Assembly (NCBI GenBank): GCA_963696395.1
Contig: CAVOJZ010000002.1
Span: 720,619 to 784,618, forward strand
Length of the DNA stretch: 64,000 nucleotides
Reading direction: 5' to 3'
DNA from: an uncultured bacterium
GTDB taxonomy: Bacteria > Patescibacteriota > Minisyncoccia > UBA6257 > 2-01-FULL-56-20
Positions 5,278 through 37,760 of the stretch are shown piece by piece (the stretch's first letter is position 1; every line of letters begins with the position of its first letter). Position numbers and translations under genes: made by a program. The notes beneath the pieces were generated by a model, which made no database searches, had not been told where the DNA came from, and was given only the letters and a program-made list of their open reading frames with translations.

Positions 5278-7878
5278 ATGAAGCGCATGCCAAAGAAGAT
5301 CGGTTTCGGAATGGCTTTCGGGGCATTAGCTTTCCTTTTCTTAGTTTCTAAATCATTTGCACAGGTTCCGCCGGGCGGTCCGCCTCCTTCGCCCGATCAA
5401 ACACCCCCAACGGCAACCACGACCTATCCGGTTAATAACCAGACGGTTTCTTCGACTATTACAATTTCAGGAACGGCGGCTGACGACGTAGCCGTTGCAT
5501 CAGTGGCAGTTTCGATTGATGGCGGGGCATATGCTAATGCATCTGGGACGACGGCTTGGACTTATGTTTGGAACACGACGAGCGTCGCGAACGGTTCTCA
5601 CACCATTGAAGCTCAAGCAATTGACACTTCGGGAAATACAGGTCTTGCGCCGGTCGTAACGGTTAATGTCAGTAATTCCGGTGGAGGCGGCACTCAACCA
5701 CCGACAGCGCCTACAAACCTTGCAGTTACGGGGACGACCACGAGTACGGTTTCTCTCGGCTGGACTGCATCCAACGCGGGAACCTATCCGATCGCAGGAT
5801 ATCAGGTGTTCCGTTGTACGGGCGTATGCACACCGAGCGTGCAGGTTGCAACTTCAACCGGTACCGGTACGATGTTCACCGACGTTGGCCTTGCAGCGTC
5901 AACGACCTATTCATATTCAATAGACGCTTACGATACTCACGGCAACGTAGGCAGTAAGTCGTCGGTGGTTCAAGGAACAACAAGAGCATCATCAGATACC
6001 CAGCCTCCCACGGTTTCAATTACATATCCAACGAGCGGCGCCACGGTGTCTTCGACGATTACGGTAACGGCTACCGCTTCGGACAATGTCGGTGTGGTGA
6101 AAGTTGAGTTTTATCTCGATGGATTTTTGCAGTTTAGTACCACCACCCCACCTTATTATTGGATCTGGGATACTACGTCAACCGCAAACGGTTCTCATAC
6201 TCTTTCCGCCAAAGCCTACGATGCCGCAGGCAATGTTGGCACGAGTGCCGATGTTCCGATTACGGTAAATAACCCCGACACTCAGCCGCCGAGCGATCCA
6301 ACAAATTTGGCAGTTACGGGCGTCACAACGTCAACGATTTCACTCAGCTGGACGGCAAGCGTTGATAATGTTGGCGTAACCGGTTATAAGATCTATCGTT
6401 GCGGAGGCGTTTGTATTCCAAGCACCCAGATCGGCACAGCGACGGCGACCGCATTCACCGACGTCGGCCTTGCAGCCTCAACAACCTACAGCTACGCTGT
6501 TTCAGCTTATGATGCCGCCGGCAATAATTCCGGTAAGTCGAACGTGGTGAGCGGTTCCACAAAGTTTTTAGATCTTCAGCCTCCAACGGTCAGCATGACC
6601 GCGCCGGCAAATAACTCAACGGTGTCGAGCACGGTCACTCTGTCGGCGACTGCGTCGGATAATGTCGGTGTCGCATCCGTTCAGTTTAAGATCGACGGAA
6701 CGCTTGTTGGGTCGCCGATTACAACATCACCATATAACTATGCTTGGGATTCTCGGACGGTTGCGAACGGTAATCACGCCATCACCGCTCTTGCGATAGA
6801 CACTTCCGGTAACCAGGCAACTTCTGCGCCGGTAAACGTAACGGTAACGAACGTGTCTTCAACCGACACACAGCCTCCGACAACGCCGACCAATCTTGTC
6901 GTCACCGGCGTTACAACTTCCACAATTTCATTGAGTTGGAACCCCAGCATGGACAATGTGGGAGTCGCCGGCTACAAAGTCTTTCGGAATGGTACGCAGG
7001 TTGGAACGCCAAGCGCGACCTCCTTCACGGATATTGGCCTCGCAGCTTCAACGACTTACACGTACACGGTGAGCGCATTCGATGCTGCCGGCAATAATTC
7101 ATCGTCTTCTGCGCCGGTCTCCGGAACGACTTTGCCAATTAACGACCTTATTCCGCCGAGCGTAACCATTACGTATCCGACAAACAATCAGACGGTAGCA
7201 GGATCTTTCACGGTCTCCGGCACCGCCTCGGACAATGTCGGCGTTTCCTCGGTTCAGATTTCAATCGATGGCGGTACATATCAGGCCGCCCAAGGGACAA
7301 CTTCATGGACGTATCAACTCGATACCACGACGCTTGGCAATGGCAATCATACGATCACTGCAGAGGCAACCGATCTCGCTGGTAACACAAATTCTACGGC
7401 GGTGCTTATTACCGTGGACAACGGCAATGGCAACGGAGGAGGTTGCGAGGAGAACTGTGGTGGCGGCAACGGCAACGGAGGAGGCAATGGTTCGGGGGGC
7501 GGTGGCGGCGCGGGTTCCGGGACCGGCAGCGGGACTGGGACGGGTTCCGGAACCGGTGGCTCTCTTTCTCAGCTTCTTCAAACCCTTCTCGCAGAACTCC
7601 AGGCTCTTATTTCCCAATTAAACACGCAGATCGTCGCAACGCTCACAAGGAATCTCACGATCGGATCTCGCGGAACCGACGTCCAGAATCTCCAGGTCTT
7701 CCTGAACGACAATGGCTATCAAATCTCCACGGCTGGTGCTGGTTCGCCGGGTTACGAATCAACTTACTTCGGTGCCAAGACAGCTGCGGCGCTTGCCAAA
7801 TGGCAAAAAGCGAATGGACTTCCTGACACCGGATTCTTTGGTCCTCTAACTCGGAAGTTTATGGAGGCTAATTGGTGA
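5278..7878 (+). CDS. secreted repeat protein with four bacterial Ig-like/FN3 pairs and a C-terminal peptidoglycan-binding domain
   Basis: Signal peptide. The unit (Ig-like ...SSTITISGTAADDVAV... followed by FN3-like PTNLAVTG..TTSTVSL.WTAS...YKVFR) recurs four times. A Gly/Asn linker (GNGNGGG...GSGTGSGTG) precedes a PG_binding_1-like tail (GSRGTDVQNLQVFLNDNGY...AALAKWQKANGLPDTGFFGPLT). Confidence 0.8.
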   Translation: MKRMPKKIGFGMAFGALAFLFLVSKSFAQVPPGGPPPSPDQTPPTATTTYPVNNQTVSSTITISGTAADDVAVASVAVSIDGGAYANASGTTAWTYVWNTTSVANGSHTIEAQAIDTSGNTGLAPVVTVNVSNSGGGGTQPPTAPTNLAVTGTTTSTVSLGWTASNAGTYPIAGYQVFRCTGVCTPSVQVATSTGTGTMFTDVGLAASTTYSYSIDAYDTHGNVGSKSSVVQGTTRASSDTQPPTVSITYPTSGATVSSTITVTATASDNVGVVKVEFYLDGFLQFSTTTPPYYWIWDTTSTANGSHTLSAKAYDAAGNVGTSADVPITVNNPDTQPPSDPTNLAVTGVTTSTISLSWTASVDNVGVTGYKIYRCGGVCIPSTQIGTATATAFTDVGLAASTTYSYAVSAYDAAGNNSGKSNVVSGSTKFLDLQPPTVSMTAPANNSTVSSTVTLSATASDNVGVASVQFKIDGTLVGSPITTSPYNYAWDSRTVANGNHAITALAIDTSGNQATSAPVNVTVTNVSSTDTQPPTTPTNLVVTGVTTSTISLSWNPSMDNVGVAGYKVFRNGTQVGTPSATSFTDIGLAASTTYTYTVSAFDAAGNNSSSSAPVSGTTLPINDLIPPSVTITYPTNNQTVAGSFTVSGTASDNVGVSSVQISIDGGTYQAAQGTTSWTYQLDTTTLGNGNHTITAEATDLAGNTNSTAVLITVDNGNGNGGGCEENCGGGNGNGGGNGSGGGGGAGSGTGSGTGTGSGTGGSLSQLLQTLLAELQALISQLNTQIVATLTRNLTIGSRGTDVQNLQVFLNDNGYQISTAGAGSPGYESTYFGAKTAAALAKWQKANGLPDTGFFGPLTRKFMEANW

Positions 7879-8858
7879 CATTGATTTCGCCAATGAAAAA
7901 ATATTTAATCGGATGTTGTGCGGCAGCCGCTCTCGCGATCCCTCTCTTTGTAAATGCCGCACAGATCTATCTCGACCCCGCAACGGGAAAATTCCCTCCG
8001 GGAGTAACGTTTGCGGTTGATGTCCGCTTAGATAACCAAAACCAATGCATAAACGCGGCGGAAGTGGATCTTTCGTATCCTCCGAGTATGCTTCAGGCGG
8101 TCGGCGCAAGCGACGGTGATTCAATTTTTTCTTTATGGGTGAAGCCGCCGACGATATACTCCGACTATGGTCTTGTATCGTTTGTTGGGGGATTACCGGG
8201 TGGTTACTGCGGCCGCGTTTCCGGAGATCCAAGCTTGAGCAATAAACTTGCAACCATCTATTTCCGTTTTCCAACGTCAAGCTCGCCGGTTGCTTCGACA
8301 ACCATTCTTCAAAGCGTCCACCTTTCTTTCATTAGCAGCACGCAAGCCGTGGTTGACGATGGCCTCGGCACATTTGCCGTTTTGAAGACGGGTGGAGCAA
8401 CCTATACGCCACAAGCGTTGAAAGGCCAGTACGTTTCGCTGAATGCTCTGAATGATGCGATCGTGGACGATACGACACCACCGGAGCCATTCACGGTGGG
8501 CATCTATCGGGATCCATCACTTTTTAGCAACCAATGGTTTGCGGTGTTTTCGACCGTAGATAAGCAAACCGGTATTGACCATTATGACGTTGCCGAAGTT
8601 CCAATTCCGCAATTAAGTCAGGATCAGAGCCAATGGAATTGGGTTCGCGCCGTCAGCCCGTACCTCATCAAAAACCAAAATCTGAACGAGGTGATCGCTG
8701 TACGCGCAGTAGACGTTGCCGGGAATACCCGGGTTGAGCAATCAACGCCACCGCCGGCGCCAAAACTTAACAACTGGCAGATGGCAATACTTCCATACCT
8801 GGCAATCATTGGAGTCGCAGGCTTCACGATCTTCCAGATCATCATTCACCTCTTCTGA
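7872..8858 (+). CDS. membrane-anchored cohesin-like domain protein
   Basis: Signal peptide. The N-terminal domain (IYLDPATGKFPPGVTFAVDVRL...SIFSLWVKPP...) is homologous to the cohesin-like domain of 23408..25186. A C-terminal TM helix is present (AILPYLAIIGVAGFTIFQIIIHLF). Confidence 0.6.
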   Translation: MVTLISPMKKYLIGCCAAAALAIPLFVNAAQIYLDPATGKFPPGVTFAVDVRLDNQNQCINAAEVDLSYPPSMLQAVGASDGDSIFSLWVKPPTIYSDYGLVSFVGGLPGGYCGRVSGDPSLSNKLATIYFRFPTSSSPVASTTILQSVHLSFISSTQAVVDDGLGTFAVLKTGGATYTPQALKGQYVSLNALNDAIVDDTTPPEPFTVGIYRDPSLFSNQWFAVFSTVDKQTGIDHYDVAEVPIPQLSQDQSQWNWVRAVSPYLIKNQNLNEVIAVRAVDVAGNTRVEQSTPPPAPKLNNWQMAILPYLAIIGVAGFTIFQIIIHLF

Positions 8859-8927
8859 AAATAACGCCCATATTATTGAGAACAAGAGTGAGCAACAAAA
8901 AAACACCGGAAAAGCGGTGTTTTTTCT

Positions 8928-9398
8928 TTAATCCATTCGAACCTCCAGCTTCCTCGATTTATTTCGGTTGGTTTTTGGCATTTTCACCGAAAGGATGCCG
9001 TTCTTAAACTTAACACTGGCTAATTCGGGGTTTACCTCCTCGGGAAGGATGATAGAACGCGTAAATTTGCCCCAATAGCATTCCTGGTGGAGATACTCGG
9101 CATCGGTGCCTTCGGTTTCCCTGCGGCGAAGCCCTTTTATTGAAATAGAATCCGGGCTGACGTTAACGTCTATGTCCTCGGGTCGCGCGCCCGCAATAGC
9201 CGATTCAACGACGATATCGTTTGGGGTGTGGTAGATGTCCACTGTAAGCTGGCCAATCGGCCCTTCTTGCTCCTCGGGAGCGGTTTTCCCGGGCTCAGGG
9301 ATTACAAGCGCCGATTTGGCAAGATCAATCTTATATTCGGGGTCTTCCACATTGGATTTTCCGGAAGCAAGCCTTCTGAAAAACGAAAGATTGTCCAT
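8928..9398 (-). CDS. Hsp20/alpha-crystallin family small heat shock protein
   Basis: Alpha-crystallin domain motifs: VDIYHT.NDIVVESAIAGARPEDIDV.V..DSISIKG ... FTRSIILPEEV.PELASVKFKNGILSVKMPK. Confidence 0.85.
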   Translation of the reverse strand: MDNLSFFRRLASGKSNVEDPEYKIDLAKSALVIPEPGKTAPEEQEGPIGQLTVDIYHTPNDIVVESAIAGARPEDIDVNVSPDSISIKGLRRRETEGTDAEYLHQECYWGKFTRSIILPEEVNPELASVKFKNGILSVKMPKTNRNKSRKLEVRMD

Positions 9399-9604
9399 AT
9401 GCAGTTAATTATAGGGTAGTGCCTGCGCAGCCGCAAGAATTAAGGTGTGGATTGCTCAAGCTCAGTTATTTGAGGCAAGGCTTCATTTTTTTGTCGATAT
9501 TATTTCTAGCAGAACAATTTATCCACAGGCAGTCAAATTTTAGCCATGTATAATGAATTCAGGTAACTCGGCAGTCGAGTTTTGGCAAATATCGCCCCTC
9601 GAGA

Positions 9605-10012
9605 TTGCCGAAAAACCTATGTTTTTTGAACATTATGCCTGAAGTTCCAAAAGAAGGAGCTCATTATATAACTTTAAAAGAAGCCGCAAAAATATCCGGT
9701 TACAGCCCGGACTATTTGGGGCAGTTAATAAGAAAGGGCAAATTGGCTGGTAAGCAGGTTTATCTTAACGTCGCATGGGTCACCACGGAAAAGGCGCTTA
9801 AGTCTTACCTTGAAGAGAATAAAGGAGGGATAAGAAAATCGGATTTTGGGGTAATTTTCCGCGGAAAAATTCGACGATGGCTCGAAGCCCATAGTTCGAG
9901 CGATCAGATCGTCCATTTTGCGAGGCGGGTTATTTATATAGTCATCGCCTTACTTTTCATATTTTGCATGTTTTTGCTCTACGCGATAGCGGTAAATGCA
10001 ATCTGGCGATGA
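9605..10012 (+). CDS. small protein with an HTH-like N-terminus and a C-terminal TM helix; first gene of the long plus-strand block
   Basis: ITLKEAAKISGYSPDYLGQLIRKGKL resembles an HTH. C-terminal hydrophobic helix. Its stop overlaps the next start (ATGA at 10009..10012). The true start may be the internal Met at 9635. Confidence 0.45.
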   Translation: MPKNLCFLNIMPEVPKEGAHYITLKEAAKISGYSPDYLGQLIRKGKLAGKQVYLNVAWVTTEKALKSYLEENKGGIRKSDFGVIFRGKIRRWLEAHSSSDQIVHFARRVIYIVIALLFIFCMFLLYAIAVNAIWR

Positions 10013-12108
10013 AAAAAACCATTATGATTTTCACTGTCATCCTTATCGTCTTTGCGGGTGCGCTCGCAGAGCGGGCTTTTGCAGGCGTTGGCGTTCCCAG
10101 GATCATCAGTTATCAGGGCCGACTCCTGGATTCAAGCGGAAACCTCTTGGGCGGGAGCGGCGCGGCTTATTGTTTTCGTTTTTCGCTTTTTAACGCTTCA
10201 TCCGGGGGTTCGCAGGTCTGGCCCGCGGCCACGGCATCTATCATGACGGCGACTGTGGCAAACGGGGTCTTTAATATCGGCATCGGGGACACAAGCGCCG
10301 GAGGGGACGCATTAACCTACGACTTCCAAAGCAACGACACGATTTATCTCAACGTTCAGGTCGCAACAAAAGTTGATCCGGTGTGTACGGGCGGCAGTGA
10401 AGTCTTCGAGACCCTCTCGCCGCGTGAGCGGGTGGTTGCCGCAGGATACGCAATCAATGCGGCAGCAGTCGATGGGTTCAATGCGGGAACTAATGCTTCC
10501 GGAACTATGATCCCGGTGATTTCATCTGATACGCTGACGCTCGCAGGAGTTAATCCTCAGATCAATGTGACCTCAACGAACACGCTGACGCTCCAAGGGG
10601 GAGCCGGCACCGGCAACATTCAATTTTTTTCGGCGACCAACTTTATTAACAATGCCGGCGCGCTAACGGTGGCGAGCACGGTGACGGGCAGTATGCTTCA
10701 GGCGACGGCGACTTCAAGCCAGTTTGTTTTTCAAGGTATCGCGGCAAGCGGAACCTTGAGCTGGACGCCGACGGTGAAAGGGACGCTCACGATACCGAAT
10801 TTCGCAACTTCAACCGACACGATTGCGCTTGTAAATTTTGCGCAGACATTGAATAACAAAACGCTTGCTTCGCCGATATTAAATTCATCAACGGAAAACA
10901 ATCCGACCCTGGTTTCGGCGACGGCGATTCTTGGCATGACGGTTTTGCAGAATGCGGCTGGCACGGGGCTCACATTGATGCAAAACGCCACGGGAACTGC
11001 GCTCGCGATCACAAACGCGCCGACGTCAACCCAGGTTTCGAGCACGGTCTCGATCACGAACGGTGTGAATGTCACGGGCGCAGCGCTTCTCGTTGCCAAT
11101 TTTGGATCGGGCAACGCCTTGCAGGTAAACGATGCATCATCAACAGTGTTTACAATCGATCAAAACGGCAACCTAAGATTTAATCCTTCAATCGATACAA
11201 GTACGGCTTTTGCAATTCAGAACGCGAGTCAAACCATAACCTTGCTTGCTGCCGATACGCTGAATAATGACATTAAAATCGGTCGGAACGGCGCAGCCGG
11301 AGCAATTCCGACGCTTTTGCGCTTGGACGAAAAAGCCGACGCCGGTGACCCTACCGGTTTCCCGGGGGCGATGTACTACAACTCAAGTACGGCAGAATTC
11401 AGGTGCTATCAGGGGACAGCTTGGTATAACTGCGTCCCGACAAACATGCAGTGGCAACCGGCATATTCGACGGCGCGCATTGGCTACTGGTCGACCTCAG
11501 GTGAAGCGGTGACGACGATGTCGAGTACCAATCTTATTGCGCCGACTATTACTGGCACTGCTGCGGCAAGCGCGCAGGCGGAAGATTACTATGTTCAATG
11601 GACGAGCGCCGCAACGAACGGGTCTGTCGGAGGATTAACACAGACGTTTACGCAGACGCAACCCCGCTATTTGCCGCGGCTTGCGACGAGAATTAGAACC
11701 GACACGGCGATTACGAGCCGGCGCATCTGGATTGCATTGAGCTCCGCGGCGCTGACGGGTTCTGATGGCACAGGCACACTCGCCACCGCCTATTTCGGAC
11801 TCCGCTATTCCACGAACGCAGGCGACACGACCTGGCAATGCGCGTCTGGTGACGGTACGACGGGCAGTGTCTTGAACACGGGAGTAACCGTCACAGTGAG
11901 CACGTACTACGACATTATTCTCGACGCATCAACGCTTGGACAGCTCACGTGTTCGATTGCAACAAATGGCGGTAGCTATGTTTCAGTGACGAAATCGACA
12001 AATATTCCGACGAGTACGACGGCGCTTGGCATCACGGACGCCGTGACGACGCTTACTACGACCGCCGACATCCACAGGGTGGCATACGTCTATCTTGAAA
12101 CTCGATGA
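10009..12108 (+). CDS. large secreted Thr/Ala/Ser-rich surface protein
   Basis: Signal peptide MKKTIMIFTVILIVFAGALAERAFA. 700 aa, beta-rich, low-complexity T/S/A composition. ATGA-overlapped with the flanking genes. Confidence 0.7.
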   Translation: MKKTIMIFTVILIVFAGALAERAFAGVGVPRIISYQGRLLDSSGNLLGGSGAAYCFRFSLFNASSGGSQVWPAATASIMTATVANGVFNIGIGDTSAGGDALTYDFQSNDTIYLNVQVATKVDPVCTGGSEVFETLSPRERVVAAGYAINAAAVDGFNAGTNASGTMIPVISSDTLTLAGVNPQINVTSTNTLTLQGGAGTGNIQFFSATNFINNAGALTVASTVTGSMLQATATSSQFVFQGIAASGTLSWTPTVKGTLTIPNFATSTDTIALVNFAQTLNNKTLASPILNSSTENNPTLVSATAILGMTVLQNAAGTGLTLMQNATGTALAITNAPTSTQVSSTVSITNGVNVTGAALLVANFGSGNALQVNDASSTVFTIDQNGNLRFNPSIDTSTAFAIQNASQTITLLAADTLNNDIKIGRNGAAGAIPTLLRLDEKADAGDPTGFPGAMYYNSSTAEFRCYQGTAWYNCVPTNMQWQPAYSTARIGYWSTSGEAVTTMSSTNLIAPTITGTAAASAQAEDYYVQWTSAATNGSVGGLTQTFTQTQPRYLPRLATRIRTDTAITSRRIWIALSSAALTGSDGTGTLATAYFGLRYSTNAGDTTWQCASGDGTTGSVLNTGVTVTVSTYYDIILDASTLGQLTCSIATNGGSYVSVTKSTNIPTSTTALGITDAVTTLTTTADIHRVAYVYLETR

Positions 12109-13235: not shown

Positions 13236-13262
13236 AAAGGTCGCGAATAATAAATTACTGAC

Positions 13263-13691
13263 ATGCGCGAAACAATTAATTTAGCGGAACAGCACGACGT
13301 ACCACGGCCCCGTCGGGGGAGAATGCTTATCACGGTGATCGTTGTCGTTGCGGTTGTTCTACTTGGATGGTGGTACGTGAATGGCGCAACGCAATGGAAA
13401 GCGGTTTTTCTTACGAACAACCAGGTATACTTTGGACATTTTTGGGATGTTCCGTTTGCCGGGACGATTACCCTCAGGAACGTGTACTATCTCCAATTTT
13501 CAACACCGGGTCAACAACTCGACACTCAGGATCAATCGCAGCTGAAGCTGGTGAAACTTGGAAGTGAGATCCACGGTCCGACCGATGAGATGGTGATCCC
13601 TATATCGCAGGTGCTTTTCTGGGAGACACTCCGCTCCGATAGTGCGATCGTAACGACCATCAAGAATGGGCAGACTCAAACCACTCCATAA
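13263..13691 (+). CDS. small membrane-anchored hypothetical protein
   Basis: N-terminal TM segment (MLITVIVVVAVVLLGWWYV) and a 142-aa frame sitting inside the operon. Confidence 0.5.
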   Translation: MRETINLAEQHDVPRPRRGRMLITVIVVVAVVLLGWWYVNGATQWKAVFLTNNQVYFGHFWDVPFAGTITLRNVYYLQFSTPGQQLDTQDQSQLKLVKLGSEIHGPTDEMVIPISQVLFWETLRSDSAIVTTIKNGQTQTTP

Positions 13692-15015: not shown

Positions 15016-16007
15016 TGAATAAAAGATTTTTTCATACTATAGCGTTCGTGATGGTTGCGATCGGCCTTGTCGTCCGCGGATTTTTTATGTCCGAGGCGTT
15101 TGCCGCGGATCTCGTGGTCTCGCCGGCGGTGATAGACGGGAACGGCGTGCCCAACGACATTTTGAATTACACCGTTACGGTTGTTAACACAACAGGACAA
15201 CAGCAAAATGTATTTGCCTCGGTCTATGAACTCACGCCAAGCGGAACGCAGCCATTTACCGACCCTTCCGATTCAAATCGGCCGGCGTTGCTCTCCGATT
15301 GGATCAGCGTCACGCGCGGCGCGTTGTTGTTTGCTCCGCACGAGTCAAAGACATTGCCGGTTACCGTACAAATCAATCCATATGCGCTCGCGGGGGATTA
15401 CCACGCCGTCATTGCCTTCGTTGAGGGGGGCACCCGTGATGATGCCGAAACGCATCTTGTTGGTGCGCCGCAAGCCATCGTCAACATGTCCGTTGCATCA
15501 AATCTGGTGGCGAGCCTGAAGATCGACGCATTCGCTACAGCAAAAGGATTTTATTCCGGATTTCCGGTGGACTTTAATTACACAATCGAAAATTCCGGCG
15601 ATGTCGCCGCAACGCCATCGGGCCAGATCATGCTCTACGACCGTCTGGGGCACGAAATCGGTTCTCTTGACGCGAATCCGAACGGGATAAGCATTGCCCC
15701 GGGAGAAAAAAAATCGTTTAGCGCGACATGGTCGAGCGGCAGCGGACTTGGACAATATAAAGCGGTCCTTGATATTTCATACGGAGCGGACAATGATAGA
15801 CTTGAAAACACGGCGATCGTCTGGGTTTTGCCGTGGAAAAAACTCGCGATTATATTCGGCTCGCTCTTCGTTGTTATGATTATTACGGCCCTATGGTTGC
15901 ACCATGAATATGCGAAGCGCCATCATCGCCGCCGCCGCGCGCTCGAAGCCTTGTTAAAAAGGAAAACCATGGAGCCAATTCTCGACCTTCGCCATCCCCA
16001 TGAATAA
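15015..16007 (+). CDS. cell-surface protein with signal peptide plus C-terminal TM anchor (DUF916/CscA-like architecture)
   Basis: Signal peptide and an approximately 250-aa beta-rich ectodomain. A C-terminal TM (LAIIFGSLFVVMIITALWL) is followed by a basic tail (HHEYAKRHHRRRRA). Paralog of 16000, 19610 and 35578. Confidence 0.65.
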   Translation: MNKRFFHTIAFVMVAIGLVVRGFFMSEAFAADLVVSPAVIDGNGVPNDILNYTVTVVNTTGQQQNVFASVYELTPSGTQPFTDPSDSNRPALLSDWISVTRGALLFAPHESKTLPVTVQINPYALAGDYHAVIAFVEGGTRDDAETHLVGAPQAIVNMSVASNLVASLKIDAFATAKGFYSGFPVDFNYTIENSGDVAATPSGQIMLYDRLGHEIGSLDANPNGISIAPGEKKSFSATWSSGSGLGQYKAVLDISYGADNDRLENTAIVWVLPWKKLAIIFGSLFVVMIITALWLHHEYAKRHHRRRRALEALLKRKTMEPILDLRHPHE

Positions 16008-17073
16008 AAAAGTTGCCATCATCTCTCTTGTCTTTGTCTGCTCAGCGCTGCTTTTGCCTGCGGTGTCGTTTGCGCAATCCGCGGATTCAACTTCACTCAC
16101 CATCACGCCGCCGTTTTTCGAATTGAATGTGAGCCCCGGTGATTCGTGGTCGAGTTCGATCAGAGTGGTAAATACCAACGCAACCGATATTCAGGTTCAC
16201 GCGATCGTCATGGGCTTCGCTGCATCCGATGCCGAAGGGCACGGAAACTTTATCCCATTGTCCAATTTGTCGGGGGATAGCGATGCGCTCGCGAACTGGG
16301 TCACCGTTTCACCCTCCCCGATCACTGTGCCCCGGGGTGGTGCAACGGACGTCCCGTTTTCGATTTCGGTTCCATCGGACGCGTCACCCGGAGGCCATTA
16401 TGGCGCGATACTTATCGGAACGGGGGCGCCGACGGTTGCTTCGGGGACGTCGCAGGTCGGCGTGAGCAGCTATATTTCTGCACTGATTTTCGTGAGCGTC
16501 GCGGGCAATATAGTTAATTCGGCGCAAATCACTCAATTTTCAACAGACAAGGGTGCTTATCAGGCGCCGGATGTTCATTTCGCGGTCCGTGTACAAAATG
16601 ACGGCAATGTTCATGTGCGACCGGTTGGGTTCATTCAAATATACAACGCGTTCGGCAAGAAACGAGGTGAAATTCCTATAAATCAGTCGGGTAGTCTCGG
16701 ATATATCCTGCCGTCGAGCACCCGTGAATTCGATGTTGAATGGCAGGGAACGCCGAGTTTGCTTGATATCGGACCTTATACTGCCGTCGTGAGCCTTGCC
16801 TATGGGGAAAACGGCATCGACAGTATCTCGGAAACCGTTGGATTTTGGATTGTGCCAATTTGGCAGATTTTGGAGGTTCTTTTTGTGGCTTTGATCATCT
16901 CACTACTCTTTATATTTATCGTTCGTCGCTCCGTCCGGAAAATGCTTGCAAATGAGATGTCGCGATACGGCGAAATTCCGCCGTCGCAGCCAGAGCAAAA
17001 GAAAGCTTCCGAAAAAAAGAATAATTTATCATCCGGCGGGCACGACTCCGGAACTATCGACTTGAGAAGATAG
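16000..17073 (+). CDS. cell-surface protein, paralog of the anchor family (DUF916-like)
   Basis: Signal peptide. Conserved motif SPGGHYGAILIGTGAP. C-terminal TM (ILEVLFVALIISLLFIFIV) plus basic tail. Confidence 0.7.
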   Translation: MNKKVAIISLVFVCSALLLPAVSFAQSADSTSLTITPPFFELNVSPGDSWSSSIRVVNTNATDIQVHAIVMGFAASDAEGHGNFIPLSNLSGDSDALANWVTVSPSPITVPRGGATDVPFSISVPSDASPGGHYGAILIGTGAPTVASGTSQVGVSSYISALIFVSVAGNIVNSAQITQFSTDKGAYQAPDVHFAVRVQNDGNVHVRPVGFIQIYNAFGKKRGEIPINQSGSLGYILPSSTREFDVEWQGTPSLLDIGPYTAVVSLAYGENGIDSISETVGFWIVPIWQILEVLFVALIISLLFIFIVRRSVRKMLANEMSRYGEIPPSQPEQKKASEKKNNLSSGGHDSGTIDLRR

Positions 17074-17149
17074 GGAGCGATAGGCGATTGTGTATAACTT
17101 GCCGGCATTTTCGCGTTATAATACCTTCAAGAGCGAAATTTTTCTTTGC

Positions 17150-22804: not shown

Positions 22805-22844
22805 TTTGTTATACTGTCTTATATAGAGGTGTCTATGTATTGAT

Positions 22845-23411
22845 ATGAGCTCTTTCTACGAAAAATTATCGGTGAAATTTCAGGATGGCGGGATCTCGGC
22901 ACCCGGCACCGGCACCGCGCCCGCAAAAACGGTCACTTTTAATGCGACCGGAGACCGAACTTCGCCAAAAAAAGCTGACGTCCCAGCCGCAACTCCACCG
23001 ACTGACGTGACGCCGGACGGCGCCGACCCGATTGATGTCGACCTTTTTCAATCCGAAACGCGGACCGTTGTTTTTATGCAATTGAGTGGCATTCCGGCGA
23101 ATGAACTTGCGGTGACGGTAAGCGAGGAATCAAACACGATCATTGTTGAGGCAGCGCAAAAACGTCCGGGTCTGCCTCCGTTACCCGGCGCAAAAGAAGG
23201 GGAACCGCCAGAGAAAGGAATCTATGTTAAGGCGGAGGTAAAGTGGCGCTCGCTGTACCGCAAGATCTATCTCCCGGCACCGTTTGATATCAGCGAAGCG
23301 ACCGCCACGCTCGACAAGGGCGTGCTCATTATAGTGTTGCCGGCAAAACATCCGGGCGTCGGCAAAAAAATGGTGGTTCAGGAAATCCGGCACGATGAAC
23401 AGAAAAAATGA
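22845..23411 (+). CDS. Hsp20/alpha-crystallin domain protein
   Basis: Alpha-crystallin domain motifs: IDVDLFQSETRTVVFMQLSGIPANELAVTV.EESNTIIVEA ... YRKIYLPAPFDISEATATLDKGVLIIVLPAK. The stop overlaps the start of the cohesin-like gene (ATGA). Confidence 0.7.
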   Translation: MSSFYEKLSVKFQDGGISAPGTGTAPAKTVTFNATGDRTSPKKADVPAATPPTDVTPDGADPIDVDLFQSETRTVVFMQLSGIPANELAVTVSEESNTIIVEAAQKRPGLPPLPGAKEGEPPEKGIYVKAEVKWRSLYRKIYLPAPFDISEATATLDKGVLIIVLPAKHPGVGKKMVVQEIRHDEQKK

Positions 23412-26930: not shown

Positions 26931-26979
26931 TTGGGGGCGTTGTATACGTGGTAGAATAATTGGGTAATCATCCGGTTCT

Positions 26980-29517: not shown

Positions 29518-29542
29518 TTATGCATGGTAAAATGAAAGTATT

Positions 29543-31027: not shown

Positions 31028-31028
31028 T

Positions 31029-32339
31029 ATGATTGAGCCGATAATCAAAGTTAACAATATCAAGGTTATTTACAATGAGGGTAAGGCAAACGAATACGAT
31101 GCATTGCGCGGGGAGAGTTTGGAAATTTATCCGAATGAATACATTATTCTTTTCGGGCCGTCTGGCTGTGGCAAATCAACGCTTCTCTACTCTCTGCTCG
31201 GCATTCTCCCGCCGACATCCGGCGAGGTGCTCGTCAAAAATGAAAATCCGTACAAGTACAACGTTAAGCAGATGGTCCGATTCCAACGGTCCACGGTCGG
31301 AATCATTTATCAATCGTTCAACCTGATTCCATCGCTCAGTGTGCTCGACAACGTTGCGTTGCCGCTCATCTTCGCCGGCATTCCGAAGGCGGAACGCGAC
31401 CGGCGGGGGATGCAACTTTTGAAACGGTTCGGCGTTGACCAGCAAGCGCATAAACTTTCAACAAATCTTTCCGGAGGACAATCTCAGCGCGTGGCTGTCG
31501 CGCGGTCGCTCGTGAACGATCCGGAAATTCTTTTCGCTGATGAGCCCGTCGGAAACCTGGACTCGTTGTCATCCGACCAGGTTATGGGCACGCTTGAGGA
31601 GATCAATATAAAAGATCGGAAAACGGTTATTCTCGTAACCCACGATGCAAAGTTATTGCCTTATGCCCATCGCGTTTATTATCTGCGCGATGGACAGGTG
31701 GAACGCGAAGTGATCAACCCCGAGAAAAAACAAATCAAACAGACCGACCCGGGGACATCGGTGCTTTCTGAAATTGAAAAACTTGCCCGTATTTATCCGT
31801 ATGCGTCGCCTCAGGAGCTCCGCGTGAAGAGCGTTGTTAATTTTTTGACCCAGGACGTCGGCTATGACCAGATTGAGCGTCTCGAAAAATGCGTGGGAAT
31901 GTATATAGACGGCAAGTTGAACGACGCCGGATTTGTCGAACATCTCACGAAAAACATCGAAATGGGCGGCCCCGAAATTAAGAAAGATCGGGCTGATTTG
32001 TTTTTGGAAAAAATTAACATTATCCTGAAGGAAGCTCGGGAAATCAGGGTTTACCGAGATAATTTCAGTGCCCGAGTCGCTTCCCCCCGGCAGGCCGACC
32101 GGATTGCCGAAGTCCGACAGGAAATTATGCGGGAATGCGGCTTCTCCCTGTCGCCGGAACAAATTGCCCGGTTCGATGAGTTGTTGAAATTCCGCATCCG
32201 CGGATTTATTCAGCAGGAGGATATGCGCAGACGGCTTGAGGGAAAGTTTGAAGATGACGGCATCGGCCTCAATCCCGACATTGCAAGAGAATCCTCGCGT
32301 TACCTTGAAAAGTTATTGGGCCAGGGCATGTACATATAA
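31029..32339 (+). CDS. ABC transporter ATP-binding protein (MacB/LolD/FtsE-type) with a C-terminal extension of about 210 aa
   Basis: Walker A GPSGCGKSTLL, Q-loop and signature LSGGQSQRVAVARSL, Walker B ILFADEPVGNLD. Residues about 230 to 445 lie beyond the ABC domain and match no family I recognise. Confidence 0.85.
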   Translation: MIEPIIKVNNIKVIYNEGKANEYDALRGESLEIYPNEYIILFGPSGCGKSTLLYSLLGILPPTSGEVLVKNENPYKYNVKQMVRFQRSTVGIIYQSFNLIPSLSVLDNVALPLIFAGIPKAERDRRGMQLLKRFGVDQQAHKLSTNLSGGQSQRVAVARSLVNDPEILFADEPVGNLDSLSSDQVMGTLEEINIKDRKTVILVTHDAKLLPYAHRVYYLRDGQVEREVINPEKKQIKQTDPGTSVLSEIEKLARIYPYASPQELRVKSVVNFLTQDVGYDQIERLEKCVGMYIDGKLNDAGFVEHLTKNIEMGGPEIKKDRADLFLEKINIILKEAREIRVYRDNFSARVASPRQADRIAEVRQEIMRECGFSLSPEQIARFDELLKFRIRGFIQQEDMRRRLEGKFEDDGIGLNPDIARESSRYLEKLLGQGMYI

Positions 32340-32349
32340 TTTTTATATC

Positions 32350-33555
32350 ATGAGAGCAATTGATGCATTAAAACTTTCGACGAGAATGTTCAAGACGAAT
32401 CCTGCGAGGACCTGGCTTACGATTCTCGGCATGGGCGTCGGCACGTCGGCCGTTGTGATGCTCGTCGGTCTTGGTTTTGGCTTGCAAAACATTCTTCTCG
32501 AGAAAATTGTTTTCGGGGACACCTTGCTCAGCCTCACGGTGACCAATCCGCCCTCGAACGCGGTCACGCTGAACGATGCGACCCTCGCCGAATTCAAAGC
32601 GATACCAAACGTGAACGATGTTTCACCGCTCGCGGATTTTTCTTCCGTTGTGACGTTCAACGGGTTGAGCGCCAACACGGATCTTCAGGGCGTCCAGGCG
32701 TCATATTTTAAATATGCCGGCATCGCGATGGCGGCAGGGAAGTCATTCACAGACAGTCCCGGTGACGGAAACGATATTATTCTTTCGAGCGCCGCACTTC
32801 AGTTATTCGGTGTCACCGACCCGAATCAGATTTTAGGGAAACCGGTATCATTCCGTGTCATCGCGTCGGCGGTTGGAACGTCGGGCTCGGCTGACCAGGT
32901 TCCGTTAAACGGCAATTTTACCGTGACCGGCGTGACGAACGATGCAGCGGCAATTTATGCCATGATTCCGCTTGCGACGCTTTCGTCGCAAGTCGGCATC
33001 ACCTCCTATGATAAGGTTCAGGTCCGCGTATCGGCTAGCGGTTTTTTGAACGACGTGCAAACGGCAATTGTCGCGGCTGGATTCGTTGTTTCTGCACTTT
33101 CAAAGACCGTCGATCAGGCAAATCAAATTTTTAGCGGTGTCCAGGCGGTGCTTGCCGGCTTCGGTGGTATCGCTCTCGTCGTCTCCGCAATCGGTATGTT
33201 TAACACCATGACCGTTACGCTGCTTGAGCGTACAAACGAAATTGGTGTTATGCGCACGCTCGGTGCGTCTCCGCGCGACATCCAGATTCTGTTTTTGTCG
33301 GAAGCGGTTGTTGTGGGATTCCTTGGGGGAATGACTGGCATGGCTATGGGCATCGCCGGAGGTCTCATCATAAATTACCTTCTCAATCTTGTTGCTGCGC
33401 ATTATGGGGGGGCAGCAGTAGCCCTTTTTGCCTTCCCGGGAACGTTTTTGGGGTTTATCACATTCTTTTCCGCAATCGTCGGCTTTATCACAGGAATTTT
33501 CCCTGCTCGCCGCGCGTCATCAATTAGCCCACTTGAGGCCATCCGCTACAAGTAA
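32350..33555 (+). CDS. ABC transporter permease, FtsX/MacB family
   Basis: N-terminal TM, a large periplasmic loop, and a C-terminal FtsX domain with three TM segments (MRTLGASPRDIQILFLSEAVVVGFLGGMTGMAMGIAGG). Start moved to the Met at 32350, after the upstream stop. Confidence 0.8.
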   Translation: MRAIDALKLSTRMFKTNPARTWLTILGMGVGTSAVVMLVGLGFGLQNILLEKIVFGDTLLSLTVTNPPSNAVTLNDATLAEFKAIPNVNDVSPLADFSSVVTFNGLSANTDLQGVQASYFKYAGIAMAAGKSFTDSPGDGNDIILSSAALQLFGVTDPNQILGKPVSFRVIASAVGTSGSADQVPLNGNFTVTGVTNDAAAIYAMIPLATLSSQVGITSYDKVQVRVSASGFLNDVQTAIVAAGFVVSALSKTVDQANQIFSGVQAVLAGFGGIALVVSAIGMFNTMTVTLLERTNEIGVMRTLGASPRDIQILFLSEAVVVGFLGGMTGMAMGIAGGLIINYLLNLVAAHYGGAAVALFAFPGTFLGFITFFSAIVGFITGIFPARRASSISPLEAIRYK

Positions 33556-33628
33556 GCTGGGCTTTGTGGCTCACTTGTGGATAACCGGTCTTTTTCTGGG
33601 GATAGCATAGGGTATAATTATAGTAATT

Positions 33629-35458
33629 ATGAATCCTTTCGGATCACGAGGGAAAGTTGCGGTTTCAATCATTGTTTTTGCGTTTATGGTGGCCGCCGCT
33701 ATTTTGGTTACCACTTTTTGGGGGAGCGATTCGATTCGGCATGCCCGGTTTGCTTTGGCGCAAAGTACGGCAACAACAACCGTAAACATTCTGAATACGC
33801 CGCCGAACTGGACAGAAAATCCGTTTGAGAATCCAGTATCCTCAACTTCGTCGCCTACGAATGCCGGCAATCCTGTCACGTGGTACGCCATCGGCACCGA
33901 TCCTAATAGTGATGCCTATTACCTGCTTCTTTGTAAAAATAGCAGTACGCCGACCGCGGCAAACGGCGCGGCTCCGAGTTGCGCTGGCGGCGCAGGAAAT
34001 CAATGGGCGGTTTCCACTTCAACGGTGAGCGGATCCACCTCAACGGTTTCATACGTCACGTCTTCAACCGATCCTCAGATCGATCCATGGTTTGCATGGA
34101 TCTGCGATGGCAATGCGGGCGGTGCGCAATGTAATGGAACCTACCAGCAAGGCTCAGGCTCTTCCGGATCTCCGTTCGTGGTAAATCATCGGCCGAACTT
34201 TTCAAGTTTTTCAAACAATTCTCCGGCGGTTCCTGGAGCGGTAGTGACATGGTCAACGACTGCGTCCGATACCGATAACTTTACGGGAGCAACCGACACC
34301 GTTCAGCTTTTCGTATGTAAAGCAAACGATTTCACGGGAACGTCCTGCGGTGGCGGAGGAACATTCTGTTCTTCGACGGCGTCGCTGGTGAATCCAAGCT
34401 GCTCGAGTACAATTGCAATTCCTACTCAGGACAAAGGATATTCATCTTACGGCTATGTTATCGACCAGCACCAGTTTGCGGCTTTAGGTGGAGCTGAAGG
34501 AACGAACGCAACCGAAACGGTAAGCGCGGTCGCGCCAACCATCGCTTCTTCGAGTATCAACCTTTTGAATGTCGGAGGTTCAAGCACTCCGCTTACGTTA
34601 ACGAATCCCGGCGGACAAACAACCGGGTTTCAGGTGACATTCACCGCGTCGGACAATAATAGTTGCTTGAATCCGCTTGGTGGCCAGGAAGTTGCAACGG
34701 CGAGCATCGACGTTTTCCGAACCGGGGTCGGTCTTGGAAGCTGTTCGTCAACGGGAAATTATAATGCGAATAATTGTTATCCGGCCGCCGTCGGTACAAC
34801 AACATGGGCTTTTAGCTGTTCGCAGAATGTAGGTTCGTGTTCGGGATCGAGCTCTATAACATCACAATGGACATGCACGTTCCCGCTCTGGTATGTCGCT
34901 GATCCAACGGATGGAACAGCCACAAGCACTCAATACTACAACCAGGCTTGGGCGGCAGCCGTGCAGGCAACGAATTATCTTGGCACCACAAGTACGATAA
35001 CGCAGGGCGCAACCACGAATACCGTCTTGAGTTTCCTTGCGTCACAGCTGAATACGCCGGCGATTAGTTTCGGAGCTTTGCCTCCGGGTTCGACGACTCC
35101 GACGCTTGCCGCCACAACTACGATGTCCGAGCTGGGTAATCTTGGCTTAAACGAGACGTTGTACGGCGTTGATATGTGCCCGACCTATCCTGGTTGCCCG
35201 TCTTCACCGACGTCAACTATTCCGGCTGGATCGATTGCTTATGCAAGCTCGGCTGTTGCATACGCTTTGGGAAACAGCCTGGCCTATAACCCGGGCAACC
35301 TCTTTGCAATCCAGATTCCGAAATCAACCTCAACCGCGACGTCATCGCTTGGCACGACATTCTGGGGACTTTCGGTTCCGGGAACGATCCAATTATCGGG
35401 AGCCTACACCGGCCAGAACACGTTCATCGCAGTCCGCAGCGCGCCGGGCGCATGGTAG
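33629..35458 (+). CDS. secreted Thr/Ser/Gly-rich surface protein with the shared C-terminal module (WxL-like)
   Basis: N-terminal anchor/signal. The C-terminal roughly 140 aa (NTVLSFLASQLNTPAISFGALPPGST...TFWGLSVPG...NTFIAVRSAPGAW) aligns with the C-terminus of 26980. Confidence 0.65.
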   Translation: MNPFGSRGKVAVSIIVFAFMVAAAILVTTFWGSDSIRHARFALAQSTATTTVNILNTPPNWTENPFENPVSSTSSPTNAGNPVTWYAIGTDPNSDAYYLLLCKNSSTPTAANGAAPSCAGGAGNQWAVSTSTVSGSTSTVSYVTSSTDPQIDPWFAWICDGNAGGAQCNGTYQQGSGSSGSPFVVNHRPNFSSFSNNSPAVPGAVVTWSTTASDTDNFTGATDTVQLFVCKANDFTGTSCGGGGTFCSSTASLVNPSCSSTIAIPTQDKGYSSYGYVIDQHQFAALGGAEGTNATETVSAVAPTIASSSINLLNVGGSSTPLTLTNPGGQTTGFQVTFTASDNNSCLNPLGGQEVATASIDVFRTGVGLGSCSSTGNYNANNCYPAAVGTTTWAFSCSQNVGSCSGSSSITSQWTCTFPLWYVADPTDGTATSTQYYNQAWAAAVQATNYLGTTSTITQGATTNTVLSFLASQLNTPAISFGALPPGSTTPTLAATTTMSELGNLGLNETLYGVDMCPTYPGCPSSPTSTIPAGSIAYASSAVAYALGNSLAYNPGNLFAIQIPKSTSTATSSLGTTFWGLSVPGTIQLSGAYTGQNTFIAVRSAPGAW

Positions 35459-35577
35459 TCTTTTATACACGGGATTTCCCCATTACAGAAAAAGCGTGTG
35501 TTTGTGTGGTATTATTACGTGAGGAGTCGGACGGGCTTGGAAGCTGACCCGGTTTTATTTTTTTCGGCGACGTCGCG

Positions 35578-36600
35578 ATGAAAAAAAGCTTTTCTATAAT
35601 TGCAGGGGTGCTCACTGTGACAGGATTTTGGGCAGTGGCGTTGATGCCAGCCTTGCGCGCGCAGGCGGACGGGTTTGGAATTACGCCGCCATACGTGACG
35701 AATGACCAGCTCACGCAAAATTCTGAATATGATCAGACGATTATTTTGGTACGGAGCAATCCGACACAAGACCTTCAAGCGAAGGTCTCTATTAATGTAC
35801 CGGGCGCAAATAACTGGATCACGATAGATCGAGGTACGCAATTCGTGCTTCCCGCAGGGACTCAGCAGGAGCCCATGATTGTGAGCGTGAAAGTTCCGGG
35901 AGATGCAAAGCTCGGAAATTATTCGGGGAATATTCAGGTGGTTGTTTCGCCGCTTGCAGGACCAAGCAAGGGAACGGTAGGCATCACGATCGGCGCTCAG
36001 ATAGATGTGAATCTCCAGGTGATCGATAGCCACAGCGCAAAGCTCGCTGTCCGGCGGGTTATCATGCAAAATACCGAGGTGGGACACACGTGGTGGTGGA
36101 TGCATTTTCCGGGAAAAATCATTTTCTCAATGGATTTGAATAATTCCGGAAATATATCCGGAGCACCTGGTAGGGTGGTGTTCCAATATCAGGTTTATCT
36201 TACGGGGAACACGCTCGAAACCGAACAAAACACGAACGGTCTCGATTCGGTTGCGCCGTTTCAGGCAAAGACCGTAATAGCCGAAATGCCGACGTATTTG
36301 CCGCAAGGCAGTTATAGGGTTTTTTATCAGATTTATGGACCAAACAACACGGATATTATCGGCCAGGGGAATTTGGATCTCGCTGTTTTGCCGGCCGGAA
36401 CGCTTGCGGGATATATAGGATATAATTTCTGGGGACTCCGGTGGAGCGAGAAGCTCATGACCTTTGGTATCATCATCCTTATTCTGCTCGTCCTCTACGG
36501 TATCTATGCGGGCATCCGCCTGTTTATTCGAAAGACTCGGCGGGGCGGGAGAAAAGGCAGGATACCAACGCCGCCCTCACCTCCGAGCCATTATCGTTAG
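35578..36600 (+). CDS. cell-surface protein, fourth paralog of the anchor family (DUF916-like)
   Basis: Signal peptide and beta-rich ectodomain. C-terminal TM (LMTFGIIILILLVLYGIYAGI) and basic tail (RLFIRKTRRGGRKGR). Confidence 0.65.
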   Translation: MKKSFSIIAGVLTVTGFWAVALMPALRAQADGFGITPPYVTNDQLTQNSEYDQTIILVRSNPTQDLQAKVSINVPGANNWITIDRGTQFVLPAGTQQEPMIVSVKVPGDAKLGNYSGNIQVVVSPLAGPSKGTVGITIGAQIDVNLQVIDSHSAKLAVRRVIMQNTEVGHTWWWMHFPGKIIFSMDLNNSGNISGAPGRVVFQYQVYLTGNTLETEQNTNGLDSVAPFQAKTVIAEMPTYLPQGSYRVFYQIYGPNNTDIIGQGNLDLAVLPAGTLAGYIGYNFWGLRWSEKLMTFGIIILILLVLYGIYAGIRLFIRKTRRGGRKGRIPTPPSPPSHYR

Positions 36601-36629
36601 GTGCCTGTTGTAAATAAAAAAGACGAATC

Positions 36630-37760
36630 ATGTTGAGCGGCTTTAAGAAGCTTTTGGTTTTATTATGCTTTGCGGTAATTTGCACACTTTTCACTGTGCC
36701 TTTTGCACGCGCCCAGTTTACAGCTTCAACAACAGTCAATATCAGCGTCTGCGGCAACGGCATCGTGGAGCCACCGCTTGAGGTTTGTGATGATGGCGTG
36801 AACAACGGGCAATACGCAACGTCTGCGGCCGGCCGAAATTGCTTGCCCGATTGCAGCGGCTGGGGACCATACTGCGGCGACGGAATTCTGCAGCCTTTGT
36901 TCGGTGAACAGTGTGATGACGGTAATAATATTTCCGGTGACGGATGTTCTGCAACATGTCAAATTGAGTCACTCCAACAAACCGGAGGCGGCGGAGGCGG
37001 CGGGGGAGGCGGGGGAATTTCCGGCGGCACATTTACGGAACCGAACCCCACCGAAGTGATCATTAAAGGGAAGGCATATCCTGGCTCGAGCGTAAGTATT
37101 CTCGACGACGGTACAACGATCGGCGTTGTCCAGGCGGATACCAGCGCCAATTTCTATTTTTCAACGACTAACATTTCTCCGGGCGTCGCAACGTTCGGAT
37201 TTTGGGCACAGGATTCGCAAGGCCTAAAATCAATCGCCCTCACGACCACGGTGACCATAACCGCCAACGCGGCGACAACGATCTCGGGAGAGTTCTTGCC
37301 GCCGACGATTGCGATTGATAAGCGCCAAATAGCGAAAGGTAATATTCTTACAATCTCCGGGCAATCGGTGCCGTCGGCAACCGTCGAGACCTATATCCAT
37401 TCCGGAAACCAAATTATGCTTGCGACGAGCACTGATGCAAGCGGCAATTGGAAGATCCTTTTCGACACAAAGCCGCTCGATAACAACCAGCTCCATACCG
37501 TGGATGCGGATTTTGTAACCACCGACAACGGCGCCGTGGCGCGCAGCGAAATAAGCCAATCGCTGTCGTTTTTTGTCGGTTCAGGCAGTGCCGGGAAAAG
37601 CTATCTCGCCGACCTGAACGGCGACGGCAAGGTGAATCTCGCCGATTTTTCCATATTGCTCTATTATTGGGGCACAAGCACCCCGCTTGCCGACCTCAAT
37701 GGCGACGGTAAGGTGGATTTGCAAGACCTGAGCATATTGCTGTATTACTGGACCGGCTGA
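36630..37760 (+). CDS. secreted protein with Myxococcus-type Cys-rich repeats, Ig-like domains and a C-terminal tandem dockerin
   Basis: Signal peptide. Cys repeats ([20 protein letters not shown]...[29 protein letters not shown]). Poly-Gly linker. Dockerin pair [22 protein letters not shown]...[20 protein letters not shown]. Confidence 0.75.

Follow-up and report, generated by a model that had tools for sequence, protein, structure and literature searches.

The 64-kb window analysed here (the whole stretch of DNA under study, positions 720,619 to 784,618 of contig CAVOJZ010000002.1) represents about 7% of a 913,682-bp contig and carries a conserved cell-envelope operon of an uncultured, tiny-celled Paceibacterota/Parcubacteria bacterium belonging to the candidate phyla radiation (CPR/Patescibacteria). 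Two cohesin proteins and two dockerin proteins are encoded in this operon, which probably uses cohesin–dockerin docking as a non-covalent surface tether for adhesin-like heads. The operon is approximately 33 kb long (about 5.3–38.7 kb), and nearly all genes in this span lie on the plus strand. Hydropathy profiles predict signal peptides for nearly all of its genes and additional C-terminal transmembrane (TM) anchors for several. According to Pfam, its domain content comprises immunoglobulin (Ig)-like domains (Big_7, Big_13, Big_6), fn3, LamG/DUF2341, PG_binding_1, a MacB-type ATP-binding cassette (ABC) transporter and two HSP20 genes. The long and short cohesin proteins are here termed cohesin A and cohesin B, and the dockerin-bearing proteins dockerin A and dockerin B (Table 1). 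The cohesin proteins are best read as single-cohesin membrane anchors and not as scaffoldins.

In the proposed arrangement, two type-I membrane proteins would each present an N-terminal cohesin on an Ig stalk above the TM anchor, while the two non-catalytic dockerin proteins would be exported by the Sec pathway. Their C-terminal dockerins would bind Ca2+ and plug into the membrane-anchored cohesins. The heads, which in A comprise an fn3-like domain and an Ig domain of BslA/pilin-like type and in B Cys-rich DUF4215 repeats, would thereby be displayed on Ig stalks at the cell surface. Gene adjacency points to A–A and B–B as the likely pairs, and the most likely role of the heads would be to make the cell adhere to a host cell, polymer or particle.

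Cohesin and dockerin modules in the window

Cohesin A matches the Pfam Cohesin family (PF00963; gathering score 24.1 bits) with 39.8 bits (E 6.7e-10, residues 43–153), and additionally matches Big_13. Cohesin B, taken as the mechanical open reading frame (ORF) 7872–8858, matches the same family over residues 39–162 with a score exactly equal to the gathering score. The two are homologs of one another (BLASTP E 3e-12; cross-searches with hidden Markov models (HMMs), E 1e-20 to 5e-22), and a second, Ig-like domain is also common to both. They carry the motif DSIFSLW or NSIFNLW, of which the S and the W are invariant or nearly so in the three cohesin alignments (A1, 55 sequences of the short cohesin family; A2; and A5, the cohesin domains only of 12 clade members). 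When searched against the sequences of the PDB, the whole-protein profiles A1 and A2 gave only marginal cohesin matches (E 0.15 and 0.06) because they were dominated by the Ig domains. This was remedied by the domain-only profile A5, which recovers the solved type I cohesins 1g1k, 4ums and 2vn5 at approximately 2e-5 over the full domain; its weaker matches are also nearly all cohesins.

Since the short cohesin family mostly fails precomputed Pfam cohesin annotation, the structure of cohesin B was modelled with AlphaFold2 (mean pLDDT 88.2). The top 33 Foldseek matches of this model in the PDB are all cohesins, with E-values down to 7.8e-9 and target TM-scores of 0.54–0.77. They include type I cohesins of C. 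cellulolyticum (2vn5, 1g1k), C. acetobutylicum (6kgf) and A. cellulolyticus (5nrm), as well as OlpC (4dh2), R. flavefaciens cohesins and, slightly lower, ScaE (2zf9). The predicted fold is a cohesin-type flattened beta-sandwich (jelly-roll) that is superimposable on the solved cohesins. The structure model covers cohesin B only, and the fold of cohesin A is assigned via its homology to cohesin B and the A5 profile. Cohesin B most likely starts at ATG 7893, giving the 321-residue protein called in L014 (a contig assembled from the same sample as the window), rather than at TTG 7872 of the mechanical ORF.

With custom HMMs built from ortholog alignments, the window yields two ORFs with a cohesin, two with a dockerin, and no others. 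Each cohesin protein has one cohesin domain, which identifies these proteins as anchors and not as scaffolds. Logan contigs lengthened the window by approximately 3.5 kb and added no further cohesin or dockerin modules.

An HSP20-family gene without a signal peptide adjoins each of the two cohesin genes. The HSP20-like protein encoded next to cohesin A (22845–23411) may be its partner inside the cell, because cohesin A has a conserved cytoplasmic coiled-coil tail. Directly upstream of cohesin B is an 866-residue secreted protein (5278–7878) that contains repeats of the Big_7, fn3 and Big_13 types and has a PG_binding_1 domain at its C-terminus; the last 7 bases of its gene overlap the TTG 7872 mechanical ORF and not the likely ATG 7893 start. 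Through this PG_binding_1 domain, the locus would have another way of attaching proteins to the surface, one based on peptidoglycan.

Dockerin A and dockerin B match the Dockerin_1 family (PF00404; gathering score 22.9 bits) with 23.6 bits (residues 512–555) and 34.7 bits (residues 327–370), respectively. Both modules follow the dockerin plan of two 12-residue EF-hand-like loops (D1, N3, D5, D/N9, D12), each followed by (F/L)SI(L/M)L..W. A six-frame regular-expression scan of the window returned three strict Ca-loop matches, each of them C-terminal in one of the two dockerin ORFs, and a fourth loop, DLNGDNKVNLVD, is visible in the translation of dockerin A. In the dockerin alignment (A3, 40 orthologs), the Ca-ligand positions are invariant and the helix residues strongly conserved. 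The clade consensus reads DLNxDGKVNLxDFSILLxxWG, then 5–6 residues, then DLNxDGxVNLxDFSILLxNWTG, and the module is always found at the extreme C-terminus of the orthologs, ending in WTG. The A3 profile also recovers the solved type I dockerins 2y3n_B (1.2e-5), 1daq (6.7e-5) and 2mte (7.2e-5).

Both dockerin proteins contain the same cassette of poly-Gly, two Ig domains and a dockerin (35% identity over 240 residues, E 1e-31), and they differ in their heads. The head of dockerin A has, by fold comparison, a BslA/pilin-like Ig-type fold resembling surface and adhesin domains, and that of dockerin B matches DUF4215 (45.4 bits) and TIGR02232 (62.7 bits), with Big_6 (32.5 bits) in the cassette. No catalytic domain was found in either protein by Pfam, NCBIfam or the fold of the dockerin A head. 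Hydropathy predicts signal peptides on all four cohesin and dockerin proteins and TM anchors on the cohesin proteins only. Pfam scans found no glycoside hydrolase (GH), polysaccharide lyase (PL), carbohydrate esterase (CE) or carbohydrate-binding module (CBM) family in any major ORF of the window.

A preliminary description of this DNA had named the same four ORFs, all of which are present. It had read the N-terminal domains of two of them as cohesins that share the motif SIF(S/N)LW, which is borne out by Pfam scores at or above threshold, by the profiles and by the fold of cohesin B; the unrelated beta-sandwich that it had raised as the alternative was not encountered among the top fold matches. 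Likewise upheld are its two C-terminal tandem dockerins with four Ca loops, its statement that the locus contains no cellulosomal glycoside hydrolase, and the non-enzymatic nature of the dockerin cargo (Ig, BslA-like and Cys-rich heads). Both cohesin proteins are membrane-anchored, as it had claimed. It had further stated that both end in their TM helix, which is true of the short protein and not of the long one, where the tail of approximately 90 residues follows. Its term "scaffold" is not retained, as each anchor has one cohesin.

Gene order in relatives and the wider cohesin clade

Three related contigs preserve the gene order dockerin A, HSP20, cohesin A; of these, L003 encodes a cohesin A ortholog with 67% identity and L005 and L006 encode orthologs with 41% identity. 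In all three, this trio is preceded by genes for a TM-anchored Ig protein, paralogous secreted proteins and a small TM protein, and is followed by X (an operon gene so designated), LamG, fn3, ABC, MacB and a protein of approximately 610 residues. In L011, L009 and L010, whose orthologs of cohesin B have 62%, 44% and 40% identity, respectively, the short cohesin gene is located 24–54 bp downstream of the DUF4215–dockerin B gene, at the end of the operon. In the window and in L012 (70% identity), the short cohesin has been relocated to the head of the cluster, beside a convergent HSP20 gene. A more distant relative, L007 (31% identity), has another neighbourhood altogether, in which an fn3–Big_6–dockerin gene (Pfam 36.7 bits), a short cohesin and a long cohesin are consecutive.

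Approximately 16 cohesin–dockerin pairs have both members on one contig, and most of these pairs are more than 60% identical. The recurrence of a dockerin gene beside a cohesin gene across divergent genomes argues that the two modules work together. This repeated adjacency, which is the pattern that would be expected of a functional pair, is the strongest new evidence. L010 contains one extra cohesin gene. It also encodes a 257-residue protein (11907–12680, minus strand) that combines a single cohesin with a single dockerin at the C-terminus and has a TM or signal segment at the N-terminus; this protein could act as an adaptor or form a head-to-tail polymer.

A phmmer search of the full library with the cohesin A domain matched 5,623 cluster representatives (50% identity) at E <=1e-3, and 2,585 at E <=1e-10. 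Most members of this clade are proteins of 200–620 residues with one N-terminal cohesin, and some have 2–9 cohesins. Among the relatives of the long cohesin, NCBI labels read "cohesin domain-containing protein", assigned to Candidatus Paceibacterota, Minisyncoccia, the Parcubacteria group and the Patescibacteria group. The top library match, P0278, is a 2,276-residue protein with nine cohesins of this clade and a C-terminal dockerin. It is encoded at 4650–11480 of the metagenomic contig L013 (GC 43.5%), adjacent to a GH44 enzyme that has a dockerin at its C-terminus and to four ORFs with one cohesin each; its neighbours lie at 1830–2414, 2785–4569 and 12332–13270. Judged by its gene content, L013 is a genuine scaffoldin/enzyme system related to the window cohesins. 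The use of the clade in this classical arrangement supports dockerin binding as its function, and the window version is an enzyme-free, single-cohesin form.

Comparison with known systems and alternative explanations

The window proteins share with the cellulosomal type I pairs (2vn5, 6kgf, 5nrm) the cohesin beta-sandwich, with the best Foldseek target TM-scores at 0.7–0.77, and the dockerin plan of two 12-residue Ca loops plus helices, placed at the C-terminus of a secreted protein. They differ in belonging to a CPR organism and in their sequence hallmarks, namely the SIF(S/N)LW and DG.GT motifs, the shorter dockerin linker, the invariant WTG end and the low identity (12–17%). Every cellulosome-defining trait examined is absent from the window system: there is no tandem-cohesin scaffoldin, no enzyme cargo, no CBM, and no anchoring by S-layer homology (SLH) domains and none by sortase. 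Pfam found no SLH, LPXTG or CBM match in the four cohesin and dockerin proteins, for which hydropathy indicates anchoring via TM helices. In its working, the proposed system resembles the single-cohesin anchors OlpC and SdbA of C. thermocellum (4dh2) and ScaE of R. flavefaciens (2zf9), which likewise have one cohesin per cell-bound anchor. These proteins tether a dockerin-bearing partner at the surface, as is proposed for the window proteins. ScaE reportedly also holds the non-enzymatic adhesin CttA, a non-catalytic binding partner. Unlike anchors of this type, which are fixed by SLH domains or sortase, the window proteins have a C-terminal TM helix, followed in cohesin A by the cytoplasmic coiled-coil tail.

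Descriptions of, or proposals for, cohesin–dockerin systems outside cellulosomes go back to 1999/2009 (Peer et al. 2009, cited in PMC9012536, PMC6461901 and PMC10066038). Examples are the modules of anaerobic methanotrophic (ANME) archaea (PMC9012536), the "planctosome" of Planctomycetes (PMC6461901) and the giant proteins of Omnitrophota (PMC10066038). The Archaeoglobus fulgidus cohesin 2xdh is also non-cellulosomal, and a Saccharibacteria dockerin protein is essential (PMC10633639). As in the window, cohesins and/or dockerins occur in these systems without cellulose degradation, and roles in adhesion, cell–cell contact or complex assembly have been proposed. The use of cohesin and dockerin outside cellulosomes is thus not a new principle, because the same modules are already known there. 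The preliminary description therefore overstated the case in calling it a poorly described use, as such systems are known and NCBI already names the cohesin-domain proteins. The window differs from these systems in that the genes of both partners lie side by side as conserved pairs within a single operon, and in that anchor and cargo each have a defined architecture. In the literature that was searched, no paper connected "cohesin domain" to Parcubacteria or Patescibacteria. It therefore seems that the conserved arrangement of paired genes in Paceibacterota is undescribed, although the proteins are auto-annotated as cohesin-domain proteins. The WxL/Csc loci of Gram-positive bacteria resemble the window in being operons of secreted and TM-anchored Ig-like proteins, with weak WxLIP_PGBD similarity. 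However, these loci are without cohesin or dockerin, and the window proteins score below threshold and gave no WxL-domain match.

Several points weigh against docking as a surface tether. Cohesin B sits on the Pfam threshold, and its identity to solved cohesins is only 12–17%. The linker between the dockerin repeats is approximately 5–6 residues shorter than in solved or classical type I dockerins. In six orthologs of dockerin A (P0226, P0231, P0232, P0235, P0237, P0240), the second Ca loop is degenerate (AEFDG...VDL instead of DLNxDG...), which suggests that single-site binding may prevail in those lineages. In the window, cohesin B is 29 kb from dockerin B, and for this reason the B–B pairing rests on the other genomes. 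Dockerins A and B are so similar that pair specificity cannot be assigned from them. The adhesive role is suggested by the types of domain only, and the view is confined to 7% of the contig.

The modules could also be real folds without being partners, each binding other ligands such as host glycans, peptidoglycan or proteins, and merely co-occurring in a surface operon. This is an unlikely explanation, although for many non-cellulosomal dockerins and cohesins no partner has been identified (Peer et al. 2009, summarised in PMC9012536), the Saccharibacteria dockerin protein has been read as glycan-targeting (PMC10633639), and the distance from proven cohesins (12–17% identity) is large. It is opposed by the tight dockerin–cohesin order in at least five divergent genomes, one of them with an otherwise different neighbourhood, as well as by the 2:2 stoichiometry of cohesins and dockerins in the window, the nine-cohesin scaffoldin of the same clade beside a dockerin-tagged GH44, and the strong conservation of the dockerin Ca-ligands and helix residues. 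The same L013 locus can be turned to a different account, in which the window holds the anchoring end of a cellulosome-like, polysaccharide-degrading system whose dockerin-bearing enzymes have their genes in other parts of the 914-kb genome, the local dockerins being accessory binding subunits. A LamG/DUF2341 lectin-like protein is present in the operon, dockerin and anchoring proteins were interpreted as carbon-degradation genes in earlier papers on CPR genomes (PMC3812714), and the inspection covered no more than 64 kb of the 913,682-bp contig. Nevertheless, this account is improbable: the window has neither a multi-cohesin scaffoldin nor a GH, PL, CE or CBM in any major ORF, and in every relative the two non-enzymatic proteins alone carry a dockerin within the conserved operon.

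A further possibility is that docking forms the base anchor of a polymeric fibre or layer. Dockerin A would co-assemble with the duplicated and probably abundant secreted paralogs 17090 and 18417, the structure would be fastened to the membrane via cohesin A, and assembly would be aided by the MacB-type ABC transporter and the TM-anchored DUF916-like proteins, by analogy with the WxL/Csc loci of Gram-positive bacteria. The N-terminal domains of dockerin A and 17090/18417 are homologous, the putative major subunit is tandemly duplicated, the head has a BslA/pilin-like fold, five of six TM-anchored paralogs and orthologs match WxLIP_PGBD, and the ABC/MacB pair is conserved inside the operon. Against these points, all the WxLIP_PGBD matches are below the gathering score with no WxL-domain match, nothing points to polymerisation, the Ig fold is a generic one, and only dockerin A is accounted for, not the Cys-rich dockerin B. 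A fibre or layer is therefore considered rather doubtful. The surface tether for adhesin-like heads is thus preferred. A much bolder extension of it would make cohesin–dockerin docking a lineage-wide means by which Paceibacterota hang exchangeable adhesin heads, replacing sortase and SLH. Cohesin A would in addition be a transmembrane coupler, its tail binding the translationally coupled HSP20-like protein and linking host engagement to the cytoplasm mechanically or by signal, in effect an episymbiont attachment device built from cellulosome parts. This extension is speculative and, as a whole, improbable.

Other genes of the window and surface biology of Paceibacterota

Features of the operon are listed in Table 1. 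NCBIfam gave no matches for ten unannotated operon proteins, and tRNA and Rfam scans of the window gave no matches.

Table 1. Cohesin, dockerin and neighbouring features of the operon (window coordinates; aa, amino acids).
Feature	Position	Strand	Content or basis
Short cohesin anchor (cohesin B), 321 aa	7893..8858	+	Signal peptide, cohesin, Ig-like domain, C-terminal TM helix
Cohesin B, cohesin domain	about 7959-8411	+	Pfam and fold
Cohesin B, Ig-like domain	about 8475-8762	+	Motif DTTPPEPF...TGIDHY...D.AGN
Cohesin B, C-terminal TM helix	about 8775-8852	+	Hydropathy and model helix 295-320
HSP20-family gene, no signal peptide	8928..9398	-	Pfam HSP20 60.3 bits; convergent with cohesin B gene
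Ig-like surface protein, C-terminal TM anchor	16000..17073	+	Hydropathy; weak WxLIP_PGBD (DUF916) likeness
Tandem near-identical paralogs, secreted, Thr/Ser-rich	17090-18286, 18417-19553	+	300-nt DNA repeat, 89% identity
Dockerin protein A, 561 aa	21119..22804	+	Signal peptide, Ig-like head, fn3-like, poly-Gly, two Ig (Big_13/Big_6), dockerin
Dockerin A, Ig-like head	21203-21733	+	Followed by fn3-like domain with conserved Cys pair
Dockerin A, C-terminal dockerin	22652-22801	+	Pfam
HSP20-family gene, no signal peptide	22845..23411	+	Pfam HSP20 33.8 bits; stop overlaps cohesin A start (ATGA 23408-23411)
Long cohesin anchor (cohesin A), 592 aa	23408..25186	+	Signal peptide, cohesin, Pro/Ala/Ser linker, three Ig-like domains, TM helix, tail
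Cohesin A, cohesin domain	about 23495-23917	+	Pfam
Cohesin A, TM helix, aa 483-501	24854-24910	+	Hydropathy
Cohesin A, cytoplasmic coiled-coil tail, ~90 aa, conserved	24911-25183	+	Ortholog alignment
DUF2341/LamG-lectin-like secreted protein	26980-29517	+	Pfam; conserved operon member (synteny)
fn3-repeat secreted protein	29543-31027	+	Pfam; conserved operon member (synteny)
MacB-type ABC transporter ATPase	31002-32339	+	Pfam ABC_tran 108 bits; conserved inside operon
MacB_PCD/FtsX permease	32236-33555	+	MacB_PCD 68 bits, FtsX 55 bits; conserved inside operon
Dockerin protein B, 376 aa	36630..37760	+	Signal peptide, Cys-rich repeats, poly-Gly, two Ig (Big_6), dockerin
Dockerin B, Cys-rich DUF4215/myxo_disulf repeats	about 36747-36971	+	Pfam and TIGR02232
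Dockerin B, C-terminal dockerin	37608-37757	+	Pfam

The N-terminal domain of the tandem paralogs 17090 and 18417 is homologous to the dockerin A head (BLASTP 31% identity, E 2e-9), and their C-terminal domain is common to the protein at 13666–15015 (E 4e-10). Their C-termini are identical (...NLIYVATPVF), and the motif Y..NL.Y....P loosely resembles the WxL motif, a likeness that is unconfirmed. The TM-anchored protein 16000–17073 has a paralog at 19610–20716 (38% identity) and a more distant one at 35578–36600. The WxLIP_PGBD matches among six such TM-anchored paralogs and orthologs all fall below the gathering score of 27.3 bits, with 24.2 and 19.6 bits in the window, the former being the maximum. 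No WxL domain was matched in this set, even at E up to 5. Classification as a WxL/Csc locus was rejected on these two grounds, and the likeness is kept as a lead only. The secreted protein 26980–29517 and the 609-residue protein 33629–35458 have in common a Cys-containing C-terminal domain of approximately 300 residues (34% identity, E 1e-28) that belongs to no Pfam family.

Directly before a large secreted protein, a small protein (9605–10012) is encoded that has an HTH_17 DNA-binding domain at its N-terminus and a TM helix at its C-terminus. A protein of this type is found in the same position in L010 (13611–14009) and in L014 (12787–13164), the latter being the window's own gene. It may regulate the surface operon while tethered to the membrane. 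Downstream of the operon, the regions 41875–47358 and 54653–57395 contain glycosyltransferase family 2 (GT2; cellulose/chitin-synthase-like) and GGDEF-EAL genes near three paralogous secreted proteins with the C-terminus ...GG(I/V)A(I/V)DYL..., and may be an exopolysaccharide module linked to cyclic di-GMP. Between them is a type IV pilin-like cluster (47377–54599), consisting of a prepilin with an N_methyl motif (47377–47934), a 1,086-residue fn3 protein, a 217-residue protein with a pilin-like N-terminus and a 754-residue secreted protein.

To our knowledge, little is established about how CPR/Patescibacteria build their surfaces and hold hosts or particles, apart from the type IV pili of Saccharibacteria. 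The locus offers a concrete and cheaply testable hypothesis on a Ca2+-dependent plug-and-socket tether in the surface biology of Paceibacterota. Were the hypothesis true, it may also provide new orthogonal cohesin–dockerin pairs for protein engineering, and, given the very large size of the clade (5,623 cluster representatives), it would supply an annotation for thousands of surface proteins now labelled "hypothetical".

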